A stretch of DNA of 55,946 bases, taken from Rhodothermales bacterium (lineage in GTDB: Bacteria; Bacteroidota; Rhodothermia; Rhodothermales; JAHQVL01). The notes under the pieces were generated by a model that saw only the letters and a list, made by a program, of their open reading frames with translations, had not been told where the DNA came from and searched no databases. A program made the translations under genes and the position numbers. Below are positions 1,536 to 10,264 of this stretch, piece after piece. The DNA is taken from assembly GCA_045106435.1 (NCBI GenBank), contig JBGCEN010000281.1, forward strand, positions 1-55,946, given 5' to 3'. Within the stretch, counting starts at the first letter, position 1. Each line of letters starts with the position of its first letter.

Positions 1536-3071
1536 ATGCGCTCACTTACGTTAAAACTTATTCTTGCATTTGTAGCCATTTGCATCATTCAGGCAGGGCT
1601 TGTTGCCATGCTTGTACGAGATTCAACCCACCGATCGTTTGATCGATTTGTACAGGAAGATGCCATTCAGTCGTTTATGCAGGAGGCAACGGCCCACTAC
1701 CAGACAAATAACAGTTGGGAAGGATTACGGGCTGCACTTCCATCCTTGCGGCTGGCATCAGGCAGAAATGACCGTCCACCGCCACCGATGCGCAATAACC
1801 AACCCCCACCACCTCGCGGCGGGCCACCTCCACAGCGCGATGGTGTAAGAAATCCCGAGAGACGCAATTCGAATAATAACCAAACAAACCTGCAACCAAA
1901 CAGCCAAAAGAATAATCCACCGCTACAAAAACGCAACAATCCAGGTAGACCAGGCCCAAGCCCCGGAAGTAAAGCACCATTTTTTGGTCTCGCTGATACA
2001 ACCGGCATGGTACTCCTGCCAAACGAGTTATTTGCAGCCGGCCAGACGCTCACCCCGGCCGAGCTTAAAAAAGGGAAGCCGTTATTCATCGATGAGCAAT
2101 TTCTGGCCATTGTGCTCATGCCATCGGAACGGGTACCACTCAGTACGCAAGCCAGAGCATTTATGGCAAGCTCAGATACTGCCCTTTTTTATGCGCTTCT
2201 TGCTGCCTTAAGCGTTTCGCTCGTGCTCGGACTCTGGTTTACCAGAACGTATCTAAAACCAGTACAAGAACTTACAACAGCAGCAAAAGGACTGGCCCAG
2301 GGCCAAGCTCAAGAACCGGTACCCGTTCGTACACGGGATGAAATTGGCACCCTGACGGCCGCGTTTAACCAGATGAACGTGAAACTGGACCGCTCAAAGA
2401 CCTTGCGCCGGCAAATGACGGCTGATATTGCGCATGAGCTACGTACACCGCTGACTGTATTGACCGGCTACCTGGAAGCATTGCGTGATGGAGATCTTCA
2501 GCCAAACAAAGAGCGCATGGAGATGATGTACACAGAAGCAAAGCATCTGCAGCGACTGGTTGAGGATCTTAGATTGCTCTCTCTGGCAGATGCAGGTGAA
2601 TTACCGCTTGTACACGAATCAGTCTCTCCCCACGATCTACTGCAACGCGTGCAGACATCCTTCGCCAAGCAAGCGAATGATGCATCCATAAAGATCAATG
2701 TAGAAGCGCCGGCTACGTTAAACCGCGTTTCACTGGATCCTGTGAGAATGCTCCAGGTCCTTACCAATCTCGTCAGCAATGCACTCCGATATACACCCGC
2801 TGGCGGCACAATTACCCTGGGTGTAGAAGCCTCAGGAGATGAAGTTGTATTTTTAGTTCAAGACTCAGGCGCCGGCATCCCCGAAGAGATGCTACCGCAT
2901 ATTTTTGATCGTTTTTACAAGGCAGATCAATCCCGGCAGCAACACTTGATTACTTCAGGATTGGGATTGGCCATTGCCAAATCTATTGTTGAAGCACACA
3001 AAGGGAAGATCTCGGTATCGTCAGAGAAAGACAACGGCACTGCGTTTGAAATCAGGCTTCCGGGCATATAA
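1536..3071 (+). CDS. Membrane sensor histidine kinase (BaeS-like; two TM helices, HAMP, HisKA, HATPase_c)
   Basis: HAMP RDEIGTLTAAFNQM; H-box IAHELRTPLT; N-box NLVSNALRY; G1 DSGAGI; F-box IFDRFYK; G2 GLGLAIA. Confidence 0.93.
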   Translation: MRSLTLKLILAFVAICIIQAGLVAMLVRDSTHRSFDRFVQEDAIQSFMQEATAHYQTNNSWEGLRAALPSLRLASGRNDRPPPPMRNNQPPPPRGGPPPQRDGVRNPERRNSNNNQTNLQPNSQKNNPPLQKRNNPGRPGPSPGSKAPFFGLADTTGMVLLPNELFAAGQTLTPAELKKGKPLFIDEQFLAIVLMPSERVPLSTQARAFMASSDTALFYALLAALSVSLVLGLWFTRTYLKPVQELTTAAKGLAQGQAQEPVPVRTRDEIGTLTAAFNQMNVKLDRSKTLRRQMTADIAHELRTPLTVLTGYLEALRDGDLQPNKERMEMMYTEAKHLQRLVEDLRLLSLADAGELPLVHESVSPHDLLQRVQTSFAKQANDASIKINVEAPATLNRVSLDPVRMLQVLTNLVSNALRYTPAGGTITLGVEASGDEVVFLVQDSGAGIPEEMLPHIFDRFYKADQSRQQHLITSGLGLAIAKSIVEAHKGKISVSSEKDNGTAFEIRLPGI

Positions 3072-3083
3072 TTTAGCCACTGC

Positions 3084-3773
3084 TCAGCCACTGTCGGCAA
3101 ATCGATAGCCGGCGCCGAAGACTGTTTCTATGTAGGTCGGATTTGCACTATCAGGTTCGATCTTGGTACGCAGGTTTCGTATATGCACATCAACTGTACG
3201 CTCAACACCTTCCACGGCAATATTGTGCAGTTTTTCCAGCAACTGTGCCCGCGAATATACGCGCCCCGGATGCCCCATCATTGTGGCGAGTAATTCAAAC
3301 TCTGTCGGCGTGAGCCTTACTTCTTTCCCCTCAACCAGTACACGGTATTTATCTTTATCGAGTACGATACCGCCAGCCTTCAGTACTGCATCTACATCGG
3401 TTTCTGATGACTCAACCCGGCGCAAAACAGCCTTTATTCTAGCAACCAGTTCGCGCATGCCAAAAGGCTTCGTTACATAATCATCTGCCCCTAACTCCAG
3501 TCCAACCACCTTGTCTGTTTCATCAACCCGTGCTGTGAGCAGAATGATGGGTGTTTTATTTTCCTGGCGATGAATGCGCATGAATTCCATACCATCCAAT
3601 TCAGGCATCATAACATCCAATAGAATAAGATGCGGACGAAACTCTCTCGCCTTAAACAAAGCCTCTCTCCCATTAGCGGCTGTTTCTATCTCAAAACCGT
3701 GCTCGGCCAAGTACTCTTTGAGCATATGCCGCACGTTTAACTCGTCATCTACTACTAATATTTTCTTAGCCAA
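3084..3773 (-). CDS. OmpR/PhoB-family response regulator
   Basis: Receiver ILVVDD, DVMMPELDG, KPF; winged helix LTPTEFELL, RTVDVHIRNLRTKI, TVFGAGYRF. TTG start. Confidence 0.95.
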   Translation of the reverse strand: MAKKILVVDDELNVRHMLKEYLAEHGFEIETAANGREALFKAREFRPHLILLDVMMPELDGMEFMRIHRQENKTPIILLTARVDETDKVVGLELGADDYVTKPFGMRELVARIKAVLRRVESSETDVDAVLKAGGIVLDKDKYRVLVEGKEVRLTPTEFELLATMMGHPGRVYSRAQLLEKLHNIAVEGVERTVDVHIRNLRTKIEPDSANPTYIETVFGAGYRFADSG

Positions 3774-3901
3774 GTGCTACACCCTTCGAAGTTTTCAACT
3801 CAGTATTGCCCGATACGGCCAACAGGTACTCTTTTAACATGTCTGGTTCCTTTCGAACCTGCCAACACGCCCAAACTGGCAAATTTCGCATAAAATCGCA
3901 A

Positions 3902-3956
3902 TGGTACAATCCTTGTACAGCAGACCCATACCCAACCCAAGCTCTCCCCAAGGGCT
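3902..3956 (+). promoter_or_regulatory. Sigma54-like -24/-12 element (TGGTAC-AATCC-TTGTA, 3902-3917) followed by hairpin AGCTCT-CCCCA-AGGGCT (3940-3956)
   Basis: Same block with the same spacing upstream of the paralogous S8 gene at 7173-7227. GG-N10-GT rather than canonical GG-N10-GC. Confidence 0.5.
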
Positions 3957-4033: not shown

Positions 4034-6457
4034 ATGAAGCAAACTCCCGCTCGTAATCAATACAACTCAAACCGTTGGATTACGTTACTGATCGCTGGTT
4101 TAATATTTTTTAGCCCCGCAATTTTACAAGGATGCGACGGATTAACGGGGATTGCCCCGCACGAAGAAGAGACGCTTCAAACACCCCGAAATGAGCAAAT
4201 AAAGCGAGTCAATAAATTAAGGCATTCCAACCTTTTGGAAAATGCAAGCCGGCTAACAATGGATTCTGCCGGCAAATCCGGGTCCCTGGCAATCAGCCTA
4301 TTCCTTTCTTTTAACGTCTATGAAGCCGACGGCATCACTCCGCGTCTTCTAAACAGATTTGAAACAACCAATCGTATTCTCGAAGAGTACGGCATTACGC
4401 GCAGGGTGCTTGAGAAATATGGAATTACCCATCGGATATTAAACGAATACGCAATTACGCGACGCATATTAAATCAGTACGGCGTAACGAGGCGCGTGCT
4501 TGAGAAGTATGGCATCACGCCCAGACTCCTGTCTCAATTCAACGACCAGGCCACGCCTGAATTGCTTGCGGATTATGATGTTTCAGACGACGTGCTGCTT
4601 AGCGAAGGCCTGACGCAGGCGGAAATAGATGATTTCAACAGGCTTTCCGCTTTACTTACAGACTTTAACATCACCATTGAGGAATTTGTAGAGGGGCTCG
4701 AGTCTGCTGTGCAGGAAATACGCGTCAAAATATCAATTGATGGCGCAAACCTGGGTATTTCTATTGAATTGGCCTCTGCCATGCTCGAAGCCTTCCTGGA
4801 AGAAATTGGTGATGATGAAGATATTCTTTTTGCAGAGCCAGACATAACCATCGACACTGCATTACTTGGAACGACAAGTGGTGAGTGGTATGACAAGCAG
4901 GTCATCCCCTGGGGCATTACGCACACGGAAACTCCAATACCCACTTTCTTCGACCTGTTTACGGCCGGCTATGCTGCAAAAAACCCTGTACACGTATTTA
5001 TCCTTGATTCCGGAGCGCTGGAAAACTCAATGTGGGATGATCTTTACTATGTTGAAAAGAAAGACTTCACCATGCTGTTTGAAAACCCTGATCAGCTAGA
5101 ATGGGATGAGGATCTTGCAGAAGATGTGACCGGATTTGACCCGGGTGATCTTGGAAATCCGTATGATGAATCTGGACATGGTACACACATCGCCGGCACC
5201 ATTGGGGCAAATAATGACCTTATCGGTGTGGTTGGGGTCGCGCCCTTCGTCAGAATACATAGCCTTAAGGTGCTCACCAAAGAAGGCCGCACAGACATAA
5301 CAACCCTACTGGCTGCTGTAGACTATGTTACGCGCACCAAAGAGGCCAATCCTGAGTGGCCAATTGTGGTCAATATGAGTCTTGGTGTTGATATTGGCAC
5401 CACCTCGTATAATATCCTCGACGAAGCCGTTAAAGAATCCATTTCAAAAGGAGTTGTATACGTCGCCGCAGCAGGCAACAACGGTGAAGATGCGTCCACG
5501 TATTCTCCTGCACATGTCGAAGAGGTTATTACTGTCGGTGCGTACAATGAACAAAGCGAATTTAGCAGCTTCTCCAACCACGGCACTCATGTAGATATTC
5601 TTGCTCCCGGCGAAAACATTATCTCGCTGTCACATATTATCGAAGACACCCAGTCTTTTGAAAGTGTTTTAGCAAGTGGCACATCCCAGGCTGCGCCACA
5701 TGTTACCGGGGCAATTGCGCGTTATCTGGGAGAAAACCCATACGTAAATGCCGGCCAGGTAGCCAAAGCATTGCAAACCTCGGCAAATACAGTCATTACA
5801 GGTGTACCTAACGGGACTACCAATAAATCGCTCAATGTGAATGTCCTACTGCAAGACGTCTTGGTCCTGGAAGAAGGAGAACTCATCCAAGATCCATACT
5901 ATGTGGATGAAAACAAGTCTTTAACCGATGCCTCATCATCAACGGATGCTTCGAATGATGACTCTGGCTCAAGCAATAGCACTGGATTCTTCACCATGGA
6001 TGACTTTTCTACGCAGGAATACAGTGGAAGCCATGGAAGTACAGACTGGTCAGGAGACTGGATTGAATCAGGCGAATCAAATGGATATGCAAAAGGTGAT
6101 TTCCGCGTAATAGCTGACAGTAAATGTGCGGAAGGACACTGCTTGCGGATTGATACAGACAAAGAAAACAAAGCCTTGTATCGTGCTGTGGACTTGAGCG
6201 GGAGTACATCTCCGACCCTCTCTTTCGACTATAGAAGAAAAGATCTTGAGTCATCGAACTTGCACCTGGAGGTTTCCAGCGACGCCGGCGCCACCTGGTC
6301 CAGAATTTTCACCTTTAGCAATGGGAATGATGCTGCGCAAGTCCAAAAAACTCTGGACATCTCGAAATTCGTAAGCAGTACAACCCAAATCAGATTTATC
6401 GTGAATGGACAAGGCGACAATTATGTATTCATCGACAACGTCCAAATTTCATTCTAA
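4034..6457 (+). CDS. Lipoprotein S8 subtilase A: I9-like prodomain with seven 10-aa repeats, catalytic domain and C-terminal beta-sandwich domain
   Basis: Lipobox LQG-C34; prodomain end DEDILFAEPD; triad D325 (ILDSG), H382 (GHGTHIAG), S551 (GTSQAAPHV); oxyanion AAGN; repeats at aa 101-170. Confidence 0.92.
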   Translation: MKQTPARNQYNSNRWITLLIAGLIFFSPAILQGCDGLTGIAPHEEETLQTPRNEQIKRVNKLRHSNLLENASRLTMDSAGKSGSLAISLFLSFNVYEADGITPRLLNRFETTNRILEEYGITRRVLEKYGITHRILNEYAITRRILNQYGVTRRVLEKYGITPRLLSQFNDQATPELLADYDVSDDVLLSEGLTQAEIDDFNRLSALLTDFNITIEEFVEGLESAVQEIRVKISIDGANLGISIELASAMLEAFLEEIGDDEDILFAEPDITIDTALLGTTSGEWYDKQVIPWGITHTETPIPTFFDLFTAGYAAKNPVHVFILDSGALENSMWDDLYYVEKKDFTMLFENPDQLEWDEDLAEDVTGFDPGDLGNPYDESGHGTHIAGTIGANNDLIGVVGVAPFVRIHSLKVLTKEGRTDITTLLAAVDYVTRTKEANPEWPIVVNMSLGVDIGTTSYNILDEAVKESISKGVVYVAAAGNNGEDASTYSPAHVEEVITVGAYNEQSEFSSFSNHGTHVDILAPGENIISLSHIIEDTQSFESVLASGTSQAAPHVTGAIARYLGENPYVNAGQVAKALQTSANTVITGVPNGTTNKSLNVNVLLQDVLVLEEGELIQDPYYVDENKSLTDASSSTDASNDDSGSSNSTGFFTMDDFSTQEYSGSHGSTDWSGDWIESGESNGYAKGDFRVIADSKCAEGHCLRIDTDKENKALYRAVDLSGSTSPTLSFDYRRKDLESSNLHLEVSSDAGATWSRIFTFSNGNDAAQVQKTLDISKFVSSTTQIRFIVNGQGDNYVFIDNVQISF

Positions 6458-6564
6458 TACTGTAATACAAACCGGACTTCCTGGGAAAAGGTAGTGCTTA
6501 CCACGGCCCCAGGCAGTCAATCAACCACCATTTTAAACCATCAATACAAACCAACACAAATACT

Positions 6565-6648
6565 ATGTTTGATTATCTATGGGACTTCTTTTTCGGCGGT
6601 AGCGGAGACGACATGGACTCTACAGAACGTGTTTTTGATCGCTTCTAA
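6565..6648 (+). CDS. Small peptide ORF copy 1, 27 aa: MFDYLWDFFFGGSGDDMDSTERVFDRF
   Basis: ATG 6565 to TAA 6648. Homologous to three other intact ORFs in the window; differences from copy 3 are mostly synonymous. Confidence 0.8.
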   Translation: MFDYLWDFFFGGSGDDMDSTERVFDRF

Positions 6649-6733
6649 TCCATCTTGCATCTAACCTACTCCACTTTCTCACCAGTACTTTATTCCACCC
6701 GCGTTTTTTAAACCTAAAACCAATAATTAAACC

Positions 6734-6817
6734 ATGCTTGATTATCTATGGGACCTGTTCTTTGGCGGCGACTCAGAAGAGTTAAACTCCACCCAACGTA
6801 TTTTTGACCGCTATTAA
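6734..6817 (+). CDS. Small peptide ORF copy 2, 27 aa: MLDYLWDLFFGGDSEELNSTQRIFDRY
   Basis: ATG 6734 to TAA 6817; conserved DYLWD..FFGG and RIFDRY ends; A-rich upstream region. Confidence 0.8.
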   Translation: MLDYLWDLFFGGDSEELNSTQRIFDRY

Positions 6818-6819
6818 AG

Positions 6820-6892
6820 CGTCATGCCAAACCATATGCTCAACTTGATTGGGTAGGGCTTGTCTGGATCCTGAATCAAGTCCAGGATGACG
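6820..6892. repeat. REP/MITE-like imperfect palindrome with CGTCAT...ATGACG ends
   Basis: The left arm contains caacttgatt and the right arm is gatcctgaatcaagtccaggatgacg. Same terminal hexamers as the element at 22405-22517. Confidence 0.55.
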
Positions 6893-7172
6893 TTTTGCTA
6901 AGTTGTGACATAGAGACAGGACTTGATCGAAGAAAACACGGTAATTTGCCTTGCCAGACAAGACAGCTTTTTTAAACTCCTAATCCCGCATCAATAACAA
7001 CAACCTGTACACGCACAAGACAAACTTTTTTGTCAGTATTTCAATCGCTCCACTTAAACCACTAATTCAACAACTACCACTAGCTATGTTAAAATGTACC
7101 CTTTGACCTTTACGGGTTTCTTTTTGAATCCACCCAAGCAGACAAAGCCGCTAATTTCGCCTAAAATTGTGC

Positions 7173-7227
7173 TGGCACAATCCTTGTAAAAGATATTTGC
7201 ACCCTACCAAAGCTCTCCCCAAGGGCT
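7173..7227 (+). promoter_or_regulatory. Sigma54-like -24/-12 element (TGGCAC-AATCC-TTGTA, 7173-7188) followed by hairpin AGCTCT-CCCCA-AGGGCT (7211-7227)
   Basis: Matches the 3902-3956 block, with an identical 22-nt gap between promoter element and hairpin. Confidence 0.55.
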
Positions 7228-7305
7228 TACATCAAAGGACTTCATCATTCCCGGCTCTACTGGAATGTGCGCAGATGGATTTAATAATCTATCTTGGAAA
7301 CTTAA

Positions 7306-9213
7306 ATGGACAATATTGCTCCCCGCAGTAACCCACTTCATAAACGCTGGATTACTTTAGGTATTGCTGGTTTGCTCTTCATAAGCCCCAGCGTATTGCA
7401 AGGTTGCGATGCCCTGACCGGCGCTGAAGAAAATGAAGCTCAACTACAATTTGACGACCGCGTTAACGTAAAAGCGGCTCAACAAGAAAACAAACTTAGA
7501 CACCCTGCGCTTCTGACTGGCGCAAAAAGACAATTTACTGGTTCAGCTGGTAAAACAGGCGAGGCCACAAGTCTCTTCCTTGCATTCAACGGGTACGAAG
7601 CAGATGGCATTACCCCACGTGTGCTCAACAAATTCGAAGTCACGAATCGCATCCTTGAGGAATACGGCATCACGCGACGCGTATTAGGCAAATATGGAAT
7701 CACAAAACGTGTTTTAAGCCAATATGATGTTACCAGACGCATTCTCCAGCAATACGATATAACGCGGCGCATCCTGGACAAATATGGCATAACACCACGC
7801 GTTCTGAGTAAATACAATGACCAGCTTTCAGTTGATCTTTTAAACAGCAATGGACTCACTGCCGACGTCCTTGCAGAAGAAGGATTAACGCAAGAGGATC
7901 TGGATGACTTCAACAACCTCTCCCGTCTACTTAACGAACATGATCTAACCCTGGAAACGTTTGTTGCAGAGCTAGACGCAGCCATATCATCCATTCGAGT
8001 CAAAATATTTATCGATGGTGTTCACCTGGGCGTTTCTATCGAACTAAACTCTGATCTACTTGCCGATCTGCTTGATGAAATAGCAGATGATCCAGACATT
8101 CTGTTCGTCGAGCCAGACATAACAATTCAAATCTCTGAGTTGGGGATGTTGAGCGACGGTAATCAGCAGAATCAGATTATCCCCTGGGGCAATACAAATG
8201 TTGACGCGGTGACCTCATCATCAGAAGCGATGTGGACTGCCAAATATTTCACAAATCAATTACGCGTATATGTCCTTGATTCAGGATCAATGAATACTTC
8301 GGGCTGGGATGATGCCATGGTGGAAGAACAAAAAGACTTCACGATGCTTTTCGAGAACCCGGATGAAATGTACTGGGAAGAAGATGATGCTCAGGATGTT
8401 ACAGGATTTGACCCAGGTACGCGAGGCAATCCACTAGACGAATCCGGGCATGGGTCGCACGTCGCCGGCACCATTGGCGCAATGAATAACAAGTTCGGAA
8501 TTATCGGTGTCGCACCGGGTGTATCCATCCATAGCTTAAAAGTGCTGACCAAAGAAGGCAGAACCGACATCACAACCTTACTTGCAGCGGTAGACTATGT
8601 AACACGTGCCAAGCTTAACAACCCAGCCATTCCTATGGTTGTGAACATGAGTCTGGGCGTTGACATTGGGACCACAACCTACAACGTGCTTGATGAAGCC
8701 ATCGAAGCTTCGATTGAGGCTGGCGTCATCTACGTAGTTGCAGCCGGCAATGATGGACAAAACGCTGCCACCTATTCACCAGCACACGTAACTGGTGCAA
8801 TCACGGTTGGTGCTTACAACGAACAGAACTTGTTCTCTTCCTTCTCCAACTATGGATCAAGTGTGGACATTCTTGCGCCGGGTGAAAATATCATTTCACT
8901 GTCACACAAGATCAACGAGACAAAGTCATTTGAGACAATCCTGGCAAGCGGTACGTCGCATGCAGCCCCTTATGTGACTGGCGCTGTTGCCTGGTATTTG
9001 GGCGACAACCCAAATGCAACCGCCGCGCAGGTCAAAGCTGCTTTGCTTGAATCCGCAAACACGGAAATTAACGGTGTCCCTGCCACCACAACGTTAAAAG
9101 CGCTCAATGTGGGCCGATTCACCGGGACAGCACAGGATACGGCTGCCGATGCCTCGGTAGATTCCATCAACGACGACGTCTTCACCAATGTCAAAAAAGA
9201 TAAAAAATGGTAA
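7306..9213 (+). CDS. Lipoprotein S8 subtilase B, paralog of 4034-6457 lacking the C-terminal beta-sandwich domain
   Basis: Lipobox LQG-C34; seven 10-aa repeats at aa 102-171; DDPDILFVEPD; D325 (VLDSG), H382 (GHGSHVAG), S551 (GTSHAAPYV). Confidence 0.92.
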   Translation: MDNIAPRSNPLHKRWITLGIAGLLFISPSVLQGCDALTGAEENEAQLQFDDRVNVKAAQQENKLRHPALLTGAKRQFTGSAGKTGEATSLFLAFNGYEADGITPRVLNKFEVTNRILEEYGITRRVLGKYGITKRVLSQYDVTRRILQQYDITRRILDKYGITPRVLSKYNDQLSVDLLNSNGLTADVLAEEGLTQEDLDDFNNLSRLLNEHDLTLETFVAELDAAISSIRVKIFIDGVHLGVSIELNSDLLADLLDEIADDPDILFVEPDITIQISELGMLSDGNQQNQIIPWGNTNVDAVTSSSEAMWTAKYFTNQLRVYVLDSGSMNTSGWDDAMVEEQKDFTMLFENPDEMYWEEDDAQDVTGFDPGTRGNPLDESGHGSHVAGTIGAMNNKFGIIGVAPGVSIHSLKVLTKEGRTDITTLLAAVDYVTRAKLNNPAIPMVVNMSLGVDIGTTTYNVLDEAIEASIEAGVIYVVAAGNDGQNAATYSPAHVTGAITVGAYNEQNLFSSFSNYGSSVDILAPGENIISLSHKINETKSFETILASGTSHAAPYVTGAVAWYLGDNPNATAAQVKAALLESANTEINGVPATTTLKALNVGRFTGTAQDTAADASVDSINDDVFTNVKKDKKW

Positions 9214-9282
9214 ACAGCCTCACCAGTATCAACATCTCTTAAATCTAGCTACAACACACCTTTACATAAACAGGAAAAAACT

Positions 9283-9366
9283 ATGTTTGACTATATATGG
9301 GATTTCTTTTTCGGCGGCGGCGGAGACGACATGGACTCAACAGAACGCGTTTTTGATCGGTTCTAA
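9283..9366 (+). CDS. Small peptide ORF copy 3, 27 aa: MFDYIWDFFFGGGGDDMDSTERVFDRF
   Basis: ATG 9283 to TAA 9366; upstream CAGGAAAAAACT (AGGA SD-like); 25/27 identical to copy 1. Confidence 0.82.
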   Translation: MFDYIWDFFFGGGGDDMDSTERVFDRF

Positions 9367-9451
9367 TCTGTAAGTATCCAATCCGCAATTCCGTCCCACA
9401 AGCGCATGATTTCACCCGCTTCCTTATGAACCTGTAACCATCAATTAAGCT

Positions 9452-9532
9452 ATGTATTGACACCTCCCAAACCTGTTCTTCGGCGGCGACTCAAGTAGAT
9501 GCAGACTCCATCCGATGCGTTTTGATCGCTCC
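9452..9532 (+). pseudogene. Decayed copy 4 of the small peptide family
   Basis: ATG TAT TGA (stop at codon 3), then AAC CTG TTC TTC GGC GGC GAC TCA (NLFFGGDS) and TTT GAT CGC (FDR). The middle reads VDADSIRCV only in a shifted frame. Confidence 0.65.
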
Positions 9533-9611
9533 TGGCCGGCACGTACTCACCTAAACCAACACTGTAAACAAAACACGCTACATTCGCTACACTCTAAAAA
9601 TCAGGAAAAAT

Positions 9612-9692
9612 ATGTTTGATTATCTATGGGACTTCTTTTTTGGCGGCGATTCTCCCGACGTACAGTCGCAACGCGTCTTCGACCGCTTTTAA
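9612..9692 (+). CDS. Small peptide ORF copy 5, 26 aa: MFDYLWDFFFGGDSPDVQSQRVFDRF
   Basis: ATG 9612 to TAA 9692; upstream TCAGGAAAAAT (AGGA SD-like); conserved termini. Confidence 0.82.
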   Translation: MFDYLWDFFFGGDSPDVQSQRVFDRF

Positions 9693-9745: not shown

Positions 9746-9781
9746 AAAGAGCCGGCAGGCTCATCGACCTGCCGGCTCTTT
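9746..9781. terminator. Intrinsic terminator hairpin closing the S8/peptide cassettes
   Basis: AAAGAGCCGGCAGG / 8-nt loop / CCTGCCGGCTCTTT, a perfect 14-bp stem with A and T flanks. Confidence 0.8.
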
Positions 9782-9835: not shown

Positions 9836-10264
9836 ATGCGATTCTTTACGGCTGTTCTCTTGATCCTCCTGATGACTTTTGCACTCGGTGACTATCTGGT
9901 GAAGGAGCAAGAAGACAAAAAAATTGCACTCATCACCCCTAAAGATGCCAATGCCCAGTATGAAAAAGGCTTTCTCATCTACAAAACACACTGCCAAAAT
10001 TGTCATGGAAAACATGCGGACGGGAAAGGTAAATTCCCTGGACTAGAGAATCACACCCCTACAGATTTCACGTCTGCCGCGTTCGACAAAACGCCTAAAG
10101 AAATGAGGCAAGTAATTCGCGATGGCGGATTAGCATCGGGACTGGATCCTCTCATGCCCAAGTGGGACACAATTCTGAGCGAAACGGAAATCCGGCAGGT
10201 GGTTTACTTCATCTACACGGTTCATGAAGAAGGAGAAATGCGCAAGCGGATTCGAACCAGGTAG
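9836..10264 (+). CDS. Class I monoheme cytochrome c with N-terminal membrane anchor or signal
   Basis: CQNCH heme motif; probable axial Met in LMPKW; hydrophobic N-terminus. Confidence 0.85.
   Translation: MRFFTAVLLILLMTFALGDYLVKEQEDKKIALITPKDANAQYEKGFLIYKTHCQNCHGKHADGKGKFPGLENHTPTDFTSAAFDKTPKEMRQVIRDGGLASGLDPLMPKWDTILSETEIRQVVYFIYTVHEEGEMRKRIRTR

Follow-up and report, generated by a model that had tools for sequence, protein, structure and literature searches.

We analyzed a 55,946-nucleotide (56 kb) stretch of contig JBGCEN010000281.1 from a Rhodothermales bacterium (GenBank assembly GCA_045106435.1), referred to below as the window, in which two protease genes (A and B) alternate with four genes for peptides of 26–27 residues (Table 1). 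The proteases are subtilases whose prodomains carry a repeated decapeptide, and an original prediction, made from the DNA letters, had related this repeat to the C-termini of the peptides. Each copy of the resulting cassette would consist of a sigma-54-type promoter, a lipoprotein pro-subtilase gene and two leaderless peptide genes, in that order. The four peptides share a head M-[FL]-D-Y-[LI]-W-D-[FL]-F-F-G-G, an acidic linker and a tail ..R-[VI]-F-D-R-[FY] that is followed directly by the stop codon, so that all four end on F or Y, as had been predicted.

The two halves of this locus correspond in DNA sequence. Proteases A and B show 65% DNA identity, the promoter regions of cassettes 1 and 2 are 77% identical and the segment 6558–6812 (peptide 1, spacer, peptide 2) aligns to 9276–9530 (peptide 3, spacer, decayed copy) with 74% identity. 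The genes of peptides 1 and 3 are 91% identical, with six synonymous and two non-synonymous codon changes. The decayed copy has lost its start and carries stops, and the match of the peptide hidden Markov model at this place spans a TGA stop; a similar remnant is present in a close relative, an NCBI metagenome-assembled genome (contig L097). From these identities, the two halves are a tandem duplication in which the cassette was evidently copied as a unit. No terminator-like site was found between the protease and peptide genes, and the two are likely to be co-transcribed. Long inverted repeats follow the second peptide gene both in the window (6815–6897) and in L097 (about 3750–3880), where the arms form a near-perfect hairpin of about 35 bp, which could represent either a terminator or a small mobile element. 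A different remnant of a peptide gene, 15 codons in which the head is joined to the tail (MYDFLRRLFRIFDRY), lies in genome G001 of the same bacterial family (L036 9378–9422).

Table 1. Features of the duplicated protease–peptide locus and its flanks (window coordinates)
Feature	Position	Strand	Remark
Histidine kinase, BaeS-like	1536–3071	+	5′ flank
Response regulator, OmpR/PhoB-type	3084–3773	-	5′ flank
Sigma-54-type -24/-12 element, TGGTACAATCCTTGT	3902–3916	+	132 nt upstream of protease A
Protease A, predicted lipoprotein pro-subtilase, 807 residues, C-terminal jelly-roll-like domain	4034–6457	+	Peptidase_S8, E = 3e-43
Seven decapeptide units of protease A, residues 101–170	4334–4543	+	
Peptide 1, 27 residues, MFDYLWDFFFGGSGDDMDSTERVFDRF	6565–6648	+	
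Peptide 2, 27 residues, tail ..NSTQRIFDRY	6734–6817	+	Stop codon immediately before ATG
Branched, terminator-like hairpin with end GACGUUUUGC, closing cassette 1	6815–6897	+	-27.5 kcal/mol, z = -2.5
Sigma-54-type element, TGGCACAATCCTTGT	7173–7187	+	133 nt upstream of protease B
Protease B, predicted lipoprotein pro-subtilase, 635 residues	7306–9213	+	Peptidase_S8, E = 2e-43
Seven decapeptide units of protease B, residues 102–171	7609–7818	+	
Peptide 3, 27 residues, tail ..DSTERVFDRF	9283–9366	+	In the frame of protease B
Decayed peptide copy, counterpart of peptide 2	9452–9530	+	From alignment with the peptide 2 region
Peptide 4, 26 residues, tail ..VQSQRVFDRF	9612–9692	+	
Strong G+C-rich hairpin of 15 bp, putative terminator of cassette 2	9746–9781		Strand not assigned
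Cytochrome c gene	9836–10264	+	3′ flank

A -24/-12 element of the form TGGCAY-N5-TTGY is located 86–142 nt upstream of the protease starts in every genome of the bacterial family and also precedes the stand-alone peptide genes of genomes G001, G002 and G006. The whole window contains only two loose matches to this element, each before a protease. Both (TGGCAC/TGGTAC-N5-TTGT) have TTGT rather than TTGC at -12; the canonical TTGC is found before the peptides of G001 and G002. That both kinds of gene share this type of promoter counts in favor of some link between them. The genome encodes at least 11 full Sigma54_activat matches, and the regulator that neighbors the locus is of the OmpR type and not a sigma-54 activator. 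A possible upstream site, TTCGTTTTGTAA, was seen in six of 15 regions (among the L033–L048 upstream regions), compared with at most 3–5 in shuffles.

Both proteases match the Pfam family PF00082 (Peptidase S8) well above its cut-off of 21.8 bits, scoring 148.6 and 149.1 bits. Both have the catalytic Asp, His and Ser and the oxyanion Asn; those of protease B (Asp325, His382, Ser551 and Asn482) fall in invariant or near-invariant columns of an alignment with 42 homologues, and its nearest solved relative is aqualysin I (E = 1.6e-39), with proteinase K-type enzymes also near. We assign the proteases to S8A, as pro-subtilases of a proteinase K/aqualysin-like type. A lipobox containing LQGC is present in both (..FFSPAILQGC-D in protease A and ..LLFISPSVLQGC-D in protease B), with Gln32, Gly33 and Cys34 nearly invariant across the protease family, a sequence pattern by which these enzymes are predicted to be lipoproteins. 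The chain then runs from the signal peptide and lipobox through a conserved KLRHP..AGK..LFLAFNxYEADG segment, seven decapeptide units, about 55 helical residues and an I9-like end (..DDPDILFVEPD) to the catalytic domain. Protease A has an additional C-terminal domain of about 130 residues (window 5900–6457) with weak matches to MAM and choice-of-anchor J domains; it also occurs in about ten homologues and is missing from protease B. Family proteases are often paired, beside a large Y_Y_Y hybrid sensor kinase (contig C262 of the same genome, 27003–32888; L039 3006–11833), and in L040 and L041 each paired protease follows an unknown protein of about 732 residues. A PADLOC scan for defence systems gave no specific match, its hits being a generic model for subtilases and IetS, the latter weak at 21 bits, and no published account of this architecture was found in a literature search.

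Each protease contains seven decapeptide units with the pattern x-I-T-x-R-x-L-x-x-Y/F; the number of units and the repeat and tail sequences quoted in the original prediction are exact. An AlphaFold2 model of protease B, built with 42 homologues, has a mean predicted local distance difference test (pLDDT) score of 72.5. The units are modeled as short helices with low confidence (block-mean pLDDT of 42–62) and are located between a strand (residues 84–94) and the β–α–β end of the prodomain (strands 230–233, 242–248 and 265–270 and helix 249–259). Foldseek aligned 384–387 columns of the model to unprocessed pro-subtilisin E (PDB entry 3whi) with a root-mean-square deviation of about 12 Å, and a Pfam search of the proteases at E <= 0.1 returned S8 as the only match, with no match to I9. 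Within the bacterial family, paralogues carry exactly two units (20 residues) at this place (..YEANGITPRIVNKFDVTNRLLNKFG-EGITIKSE..). The units may thus occupy and expand the helix-1 position of an I9-like prodomain, with two units in the paralogues and seven here. Public data contain 43 proteins with the repeat-bearing N-terminal region after clustering at 90%, mostly with seven units (range 3–8), and clustering at 50% leaves 26 clusters with E <= 1e-15; the clusters inspected beyond these matched the repeat region only weakly, were long low-complexity repeat proteins of eukaryote-like character and were judged to be spurious. The same prodomain also occurs in complete lipoproteins of 224–259 residues that end at ..DDPDI.. 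and have no catalytic domain (L038 7255–8031, minus strand; P0058, P0062, P0064 and P0066). These are candidate free-standing propeptide-like inhibitors or chaperones.

The peptides are not restricted to the window. A profile search of eight species genomes of the bacterial family recovered at least one full-length small open reading frame (ORF) in seven of them, including the peptides of G001 (MLEYIWNLLTGGTPDDNDHVEPNRIFDRY), G002 (MLNFLWNLLFGGGDNSGDDHVEPQRVFDRY), G006 (MFQSILDWLFGGDSGDQTGPENQTNRILDRF), G003 (MFSAFWSFLFGEDNERGHTQGILDRY), G005 (MLSAFWSFLFGDDKDNERGHTQGILDRY) and G007 (MLASLLKFLFGGETDPVAESMGVVDRY), and L097 contributes two more. Altogether, there are 12 members in three genera, with the ORF kept from start to stop. 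Start, stop and frame are conserved at 41–93% amino-acid identity and the length of the linker differs by whole codons, and for these reasons we regard the ORFs as coding. The invariant core is [VI]-[FLV]-D-R-[FY]-COOH, and the head is aromatic, amphipathic and predicted by AlphaFold2 to be helical. No signal peptide or other export signal was detected in the peptides. Searches further afield gave no additional members: a less sensitive four-sequence model detected none in another 193 genomes of the order, a scan of a genome collection gave one match, which was spurious, and a scan of metagenomes with a DNA pattern gave 31 loci, none of which had the peptide tail. The peptides are a real family, confined in these searches to one uncultured family of Bacteroidota and probably independent in origin. 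A C-terminal STPRIVDRF on contig C192 of the same genome was rejected as a chance match with no ORF context. A 31-codon ORF, MFEYLFNLLLGGSFFLIVIFLIKSIKGGKNK, recurs in nine metagenome contigs (L053, L057, L058, L059, L071, L074, L075, L077 and L078), with a peptide-like head followed by a membrane-helix-like stretch; the likeness of its head was imposed by the search pattern.

Adjacency of peptide and protease genes is found only here and in the close relative, where the protease is 90% identical. The order in L097 (1–4548) is alcohol dehydrogenase, protease, peptide, decayed copy, peptide and cytochrome c, with neither the kinase/regulator pair nor protease A; since this gene order differs from that of the window, the locus has been rearranged between close species. 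At the corresponding locus of the congeners G001 and G002 the kinase and regulator directly adjoin a lone peptide gene, which is followed by cytochrome c, and no protease is present; a seven-repeat protease is encoded elsewhere, without peptides. The cytochrome c gene is the conserved downstream neighbor of the peptide genes within the genus. Peptides of genera g2 and g3 stand in unrelated contexts, and the proteases of g2 have two units only. Three metagenomic protease loci, each with 10 kb of flank, contained no peptide. Conserved synteny of peptide and protease was rejected, being absent from G001, G002, G003, G005, G006 and G007 and from the metagenomic loci L039–L041, L098 and L099. The presumed periplasmic part of the kinase next to the cassettes contains a long low-complexity stretch rich in Pro, Asn and Gln.

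The similarity between tails and repeats was evaluated with a profile of the 14 repeats. The tails of peptides 1–4 score 7.5, 7.1, 7.5 and -1.1 bits and those of relatives 1.3, 4.8 and 13.0 bits, the last being the G006 tail NQTNRILDRF; the true repeats score 18.6–29.3 bits in a leave-one-out test. Shuffled tails reach the observed scores with p = 1.5e-4 to 2e-2. Among the C-terminal 10-mers of 62,801 ORFs of the genome, the fraction that scores as well is 2.4e-4 for peptides 1 and 3, 3.7e-4 for peptide 2 and 1.2e-2 for peptide 4. The likeness reported originally therefore holds against shuffled tails and genomic C-termini, where a score no better than that of shuffles had been named as the refuting outcome, but the tails lie 12–30 bits below the true repeats. 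The conserved positions also differ. Thr(-7), Arg(-5) and Leu(-3) are invariant in the repeats; the 12 peptides have Thr in seven, Arg in nine, Phe, Leu or Val at -3 and a terminal aromatic residue in all. Asp(-2) and Arg(-1) are invariant in the peptides, and both positions vary in the repeats. The information content per position is uncorrelated between the two sets (r = 0.04), and no covariation was detected, as the tails resemble repeats from the same genome no more than repeats from others. The tail likeness is weak, more than chance would give and far from a true repeat unit. What is shared, T/S-x-R-[VI]-[LF]-x-x-[FY], is best described as a real short motif composed of an N-capping Thr or Ser, a basic residue, two hydrophobic residues and a terminal aromatic.

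A further resemblance had been suggested between the segment before repeat 1 (FLAFNGYEADG) and the peptide head and linker (FFFGGGGDDMD), and this did not stand. Against the profile of the protease family the heads score -34 to -38 bits, no better than random C-terminal 27-mers (fraction 0.37–0.58) or their own shuffles, an hhalign comparison of the peptide and protease profiles gives a probability of 3.8%, and no DNA similarity of the peptide genes to the repeats was found. On these three comparisons we rejected a common origin of the whole peptide and the stretch that leads up to repeat 1 and contains it.

Peptide 3 shares the reading frame of protease B, with one TAA and 23 codons between the two, and the natural read-through product (protease B, linker and peptide 3, with TAA read as Gly) was folded in AlphaFold2 with the family alignment. 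The protease part is as in the model of protease B. Peptide 3 was left undocked, with a low-confidence helix for the head, coil for the tail and block-mean pLDDT values of 28–45, a weakly negative outcome for the complex that had been anticipated. The two partners would also be found in different compartments, as the proteases are predicted lipoproteins and the peptides have no export signal.

Beyond these observations of gene anatomy, family membership, distribution and statistics, we put at roughly even the chance that an independent micro-protein family has been joined to the genes of repeat-bearing pro-subtilases by recent rearrangement and duplication, with the likeness of the tails amounting to a short motif. 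The ancestral home of the peptide gene in this genus would be between the OmpR-type regulator and the cytochrome c gene, with a sigma-54-type promoter of its own. In this lineage a protease gene would have come between the promoter and the peptide genes, a direction that we infer, so that both would now be co-expressed, and the promoter–protease–peptide unit would then have been duplicated in tandem. Most likely the tail likeness is not one-repeat mimicry and the main partner of the peptides is something other than the prodomain-repeat site, direct binding to which is presumably lacking. The original prediction had viewed the peptides as free one-repeat mimics that compete for, activate or co-assemble with the site that binds the repeats, which we consider improbable. 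Several observations weigh on its side and against the account just given. The likeness is reciprocal, as a profile of the 12 tails scores all 14 repeats at 3.3–13.3 bits, values reached by 2e-5 to 4e-3 of random 8-mers, and one tail (G006) attains 13 bits on the repeat profile; the peptides end exactly in register with the aromatic residue of the repeat; the genes apparently share a transcript and were copied together as one cassette, and selection has kept peptide genes in both copies; and the peptide and the repeat-type pro-region co-occur in seven of the eight family genomes and are both missing from the eighth. The lack of docking also counts for little, as the model is of the pro-form, the alignment had no depth over the peptide and the readout was limited to pLDDT and secondary structure. 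Yet mimicry fits poorly with the distance of the tails from true repeats, with invariant positions that are discordant in both directions, with the missing covariation, with an adjacency that is recent and with a genus (g2) that has peptides and only two-unit proteases. It also fits poorly with peptides that have neither an export signal nor a docked pose. The I9 topology, moreover, would make the helix-1 region face away from the catalytic domain, so that one would not expect the protease to have a site that binds the repeats. The mimic proposal is neither refuted nor supported, and nothing beyond the short motif and co-expression points to it.

Other functional links can be drawn. The repeat ends and peptide tails might both bind the subtilase active site in the manner of a substrate or product, with a hydrophobic residue at P4 and an aromatic one at P1, so that the free C-terminal ..F-D-R-F would act as a competitive inhibitor or decoy; this analogy is about as improbable as mimicry. 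Subtilisin- and proteinase K-type enzymes favor residues of this kind at P4 and P1, an I9 propeptide acts through its C-terminus as a product-like competitive inhibitor, and the residues are in place both in the peptides (Phe, Leu or Val at -3 and a Phe or Tyr end) and in the repeats (Leu at -3 and Tyr or Phe at 0). In most family members a Trp-Tyr pair precedes the PWG motif by about eight residues and may mark the place of autoprocessing of the proteinase K type. Compartments again disagree, however, with a presumably cytoplasmic peptide and an exported lipoprotein enzyme, and the AlphaFold2 fusion gives the tail neither a strand nor a confident contact. In a broader form, to which we give slightly more weight while still holding it unlikely, leaderless micro-proteins co-expressed from the sigma-54-type promoter would tune the folding, export or maturation of the protease by means of a prodomain helix unit copied at their C-terminus, or of the product-like ..F-D-R-F, with the expanded prodomain repeats as the cis counterpart. 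It is very unlikely that the prodomain is a polyprotein that cuts itself into about seven decapeptides, which together with the free peptides would form one class of released signals sensed by a kinase. Conserved unit copy number, regular unit ends and the sensor kinases that adjoin several members (BaeS-like here and Y_Y_Y hybrid in C262 and L039) would suit such a scheme, but the free peptides have no export route, the context is not conserved and the units are predicted to be helices of a folded or flexible insert with no sign of cleavage. Least probable of all, the small ORFs would be untranslated and the conserved DNA an RNA or a regulatory element. Nothing positive favors this beyond genes that have no Shine–Dalgarno sequence and ORFs of only 26–31 codons, and a missing Shine–Dalgarno sequence is usual in Bacteroidota; the retention of start, stop and frame across three genera, the synonymous bias between peptides 1 and 3 and the whole-codon variation of the linker all contradict it.

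If the peptides do modulate the proteases, they would represent a micro-protein that regulates a subtilase through a copy of part of the enzyme's prodomain, and a function would be available for an unannotated small-ORF family of an uncultured Bacteroidota lineage. Regardless of this link, three things are newly described: the expansion of an I9-like prodomain by two to eight helix units, the lipoproteins that consist of the free prodomain alone, and the peptide family with its putative sigma-54 promoter.

The proteases resemble the I9 pro-subtilases (subtilisin E/BPN′, aqualysin I and proteinase K) in the S8 catalytic domain and, in the model, in the strand–helix–strand–strand–helix–strand order of the prodomain. 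They differ in the predicted lipoprotein anchor and in the helix-1 region, which here consists of two to eight units and about 55 helical residues. Regulation of a subtilase by a separate prodomain-like polypeptide, the concept behind the mimic idea, is represented by POIA1 (PDB entry 1v5i), yeast PBI2 and the Plasmodium SUB1 propeptide-like protein (PMC6993865). Each of those proteins is a complete I9 fold with at least about 75 residues, whereas the peptides described here have 26–31 residues, match about eight residues of a helix unit and have no export signal; the protease family itself also includes free prodomain-only lipoproteins, among them some of 243–259 residues. The start of the peptides, M-F-D-Y-L-W-D-F-F-F-G-G, with hydrophobic residues at -4, -7 and -12 from GG, is reminiscent of double-glycine-leader peptides exported by C39-ABC transporters. 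Such a leader was rejected, as GG is lost in G003 and G005 (genus g2, with FGDD and FGED) and Peptidase_C39 (PF03412) is absent from the 94%-complete genome of this bacterium, while control genomes respond to the search.

Phr precursors of Bacillus carry Sec signal peptides. Their active C-terminal pentapeptide is released by subtilisin, Epr and Vpr (Rap–Phr review, PMC3601992). The peptides here share with Phr a small ORF with a conserved extreme C-terminus and a link to a subtilase, but they lack a signal peptide, and no gene for a Rap-like receptor lies nearby. In Myxococcus, PopD is a full-size protein that acts as a cytoplasmic inhibitor of the co-transcribed subtilisin-like protease PopC, which itself has no signal peptide. 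The cassettes described here are comparable to the PopC/PopD pair in that a protease gene and that of a small partner would form a single operon, with the partner acting before the protease is secreted.

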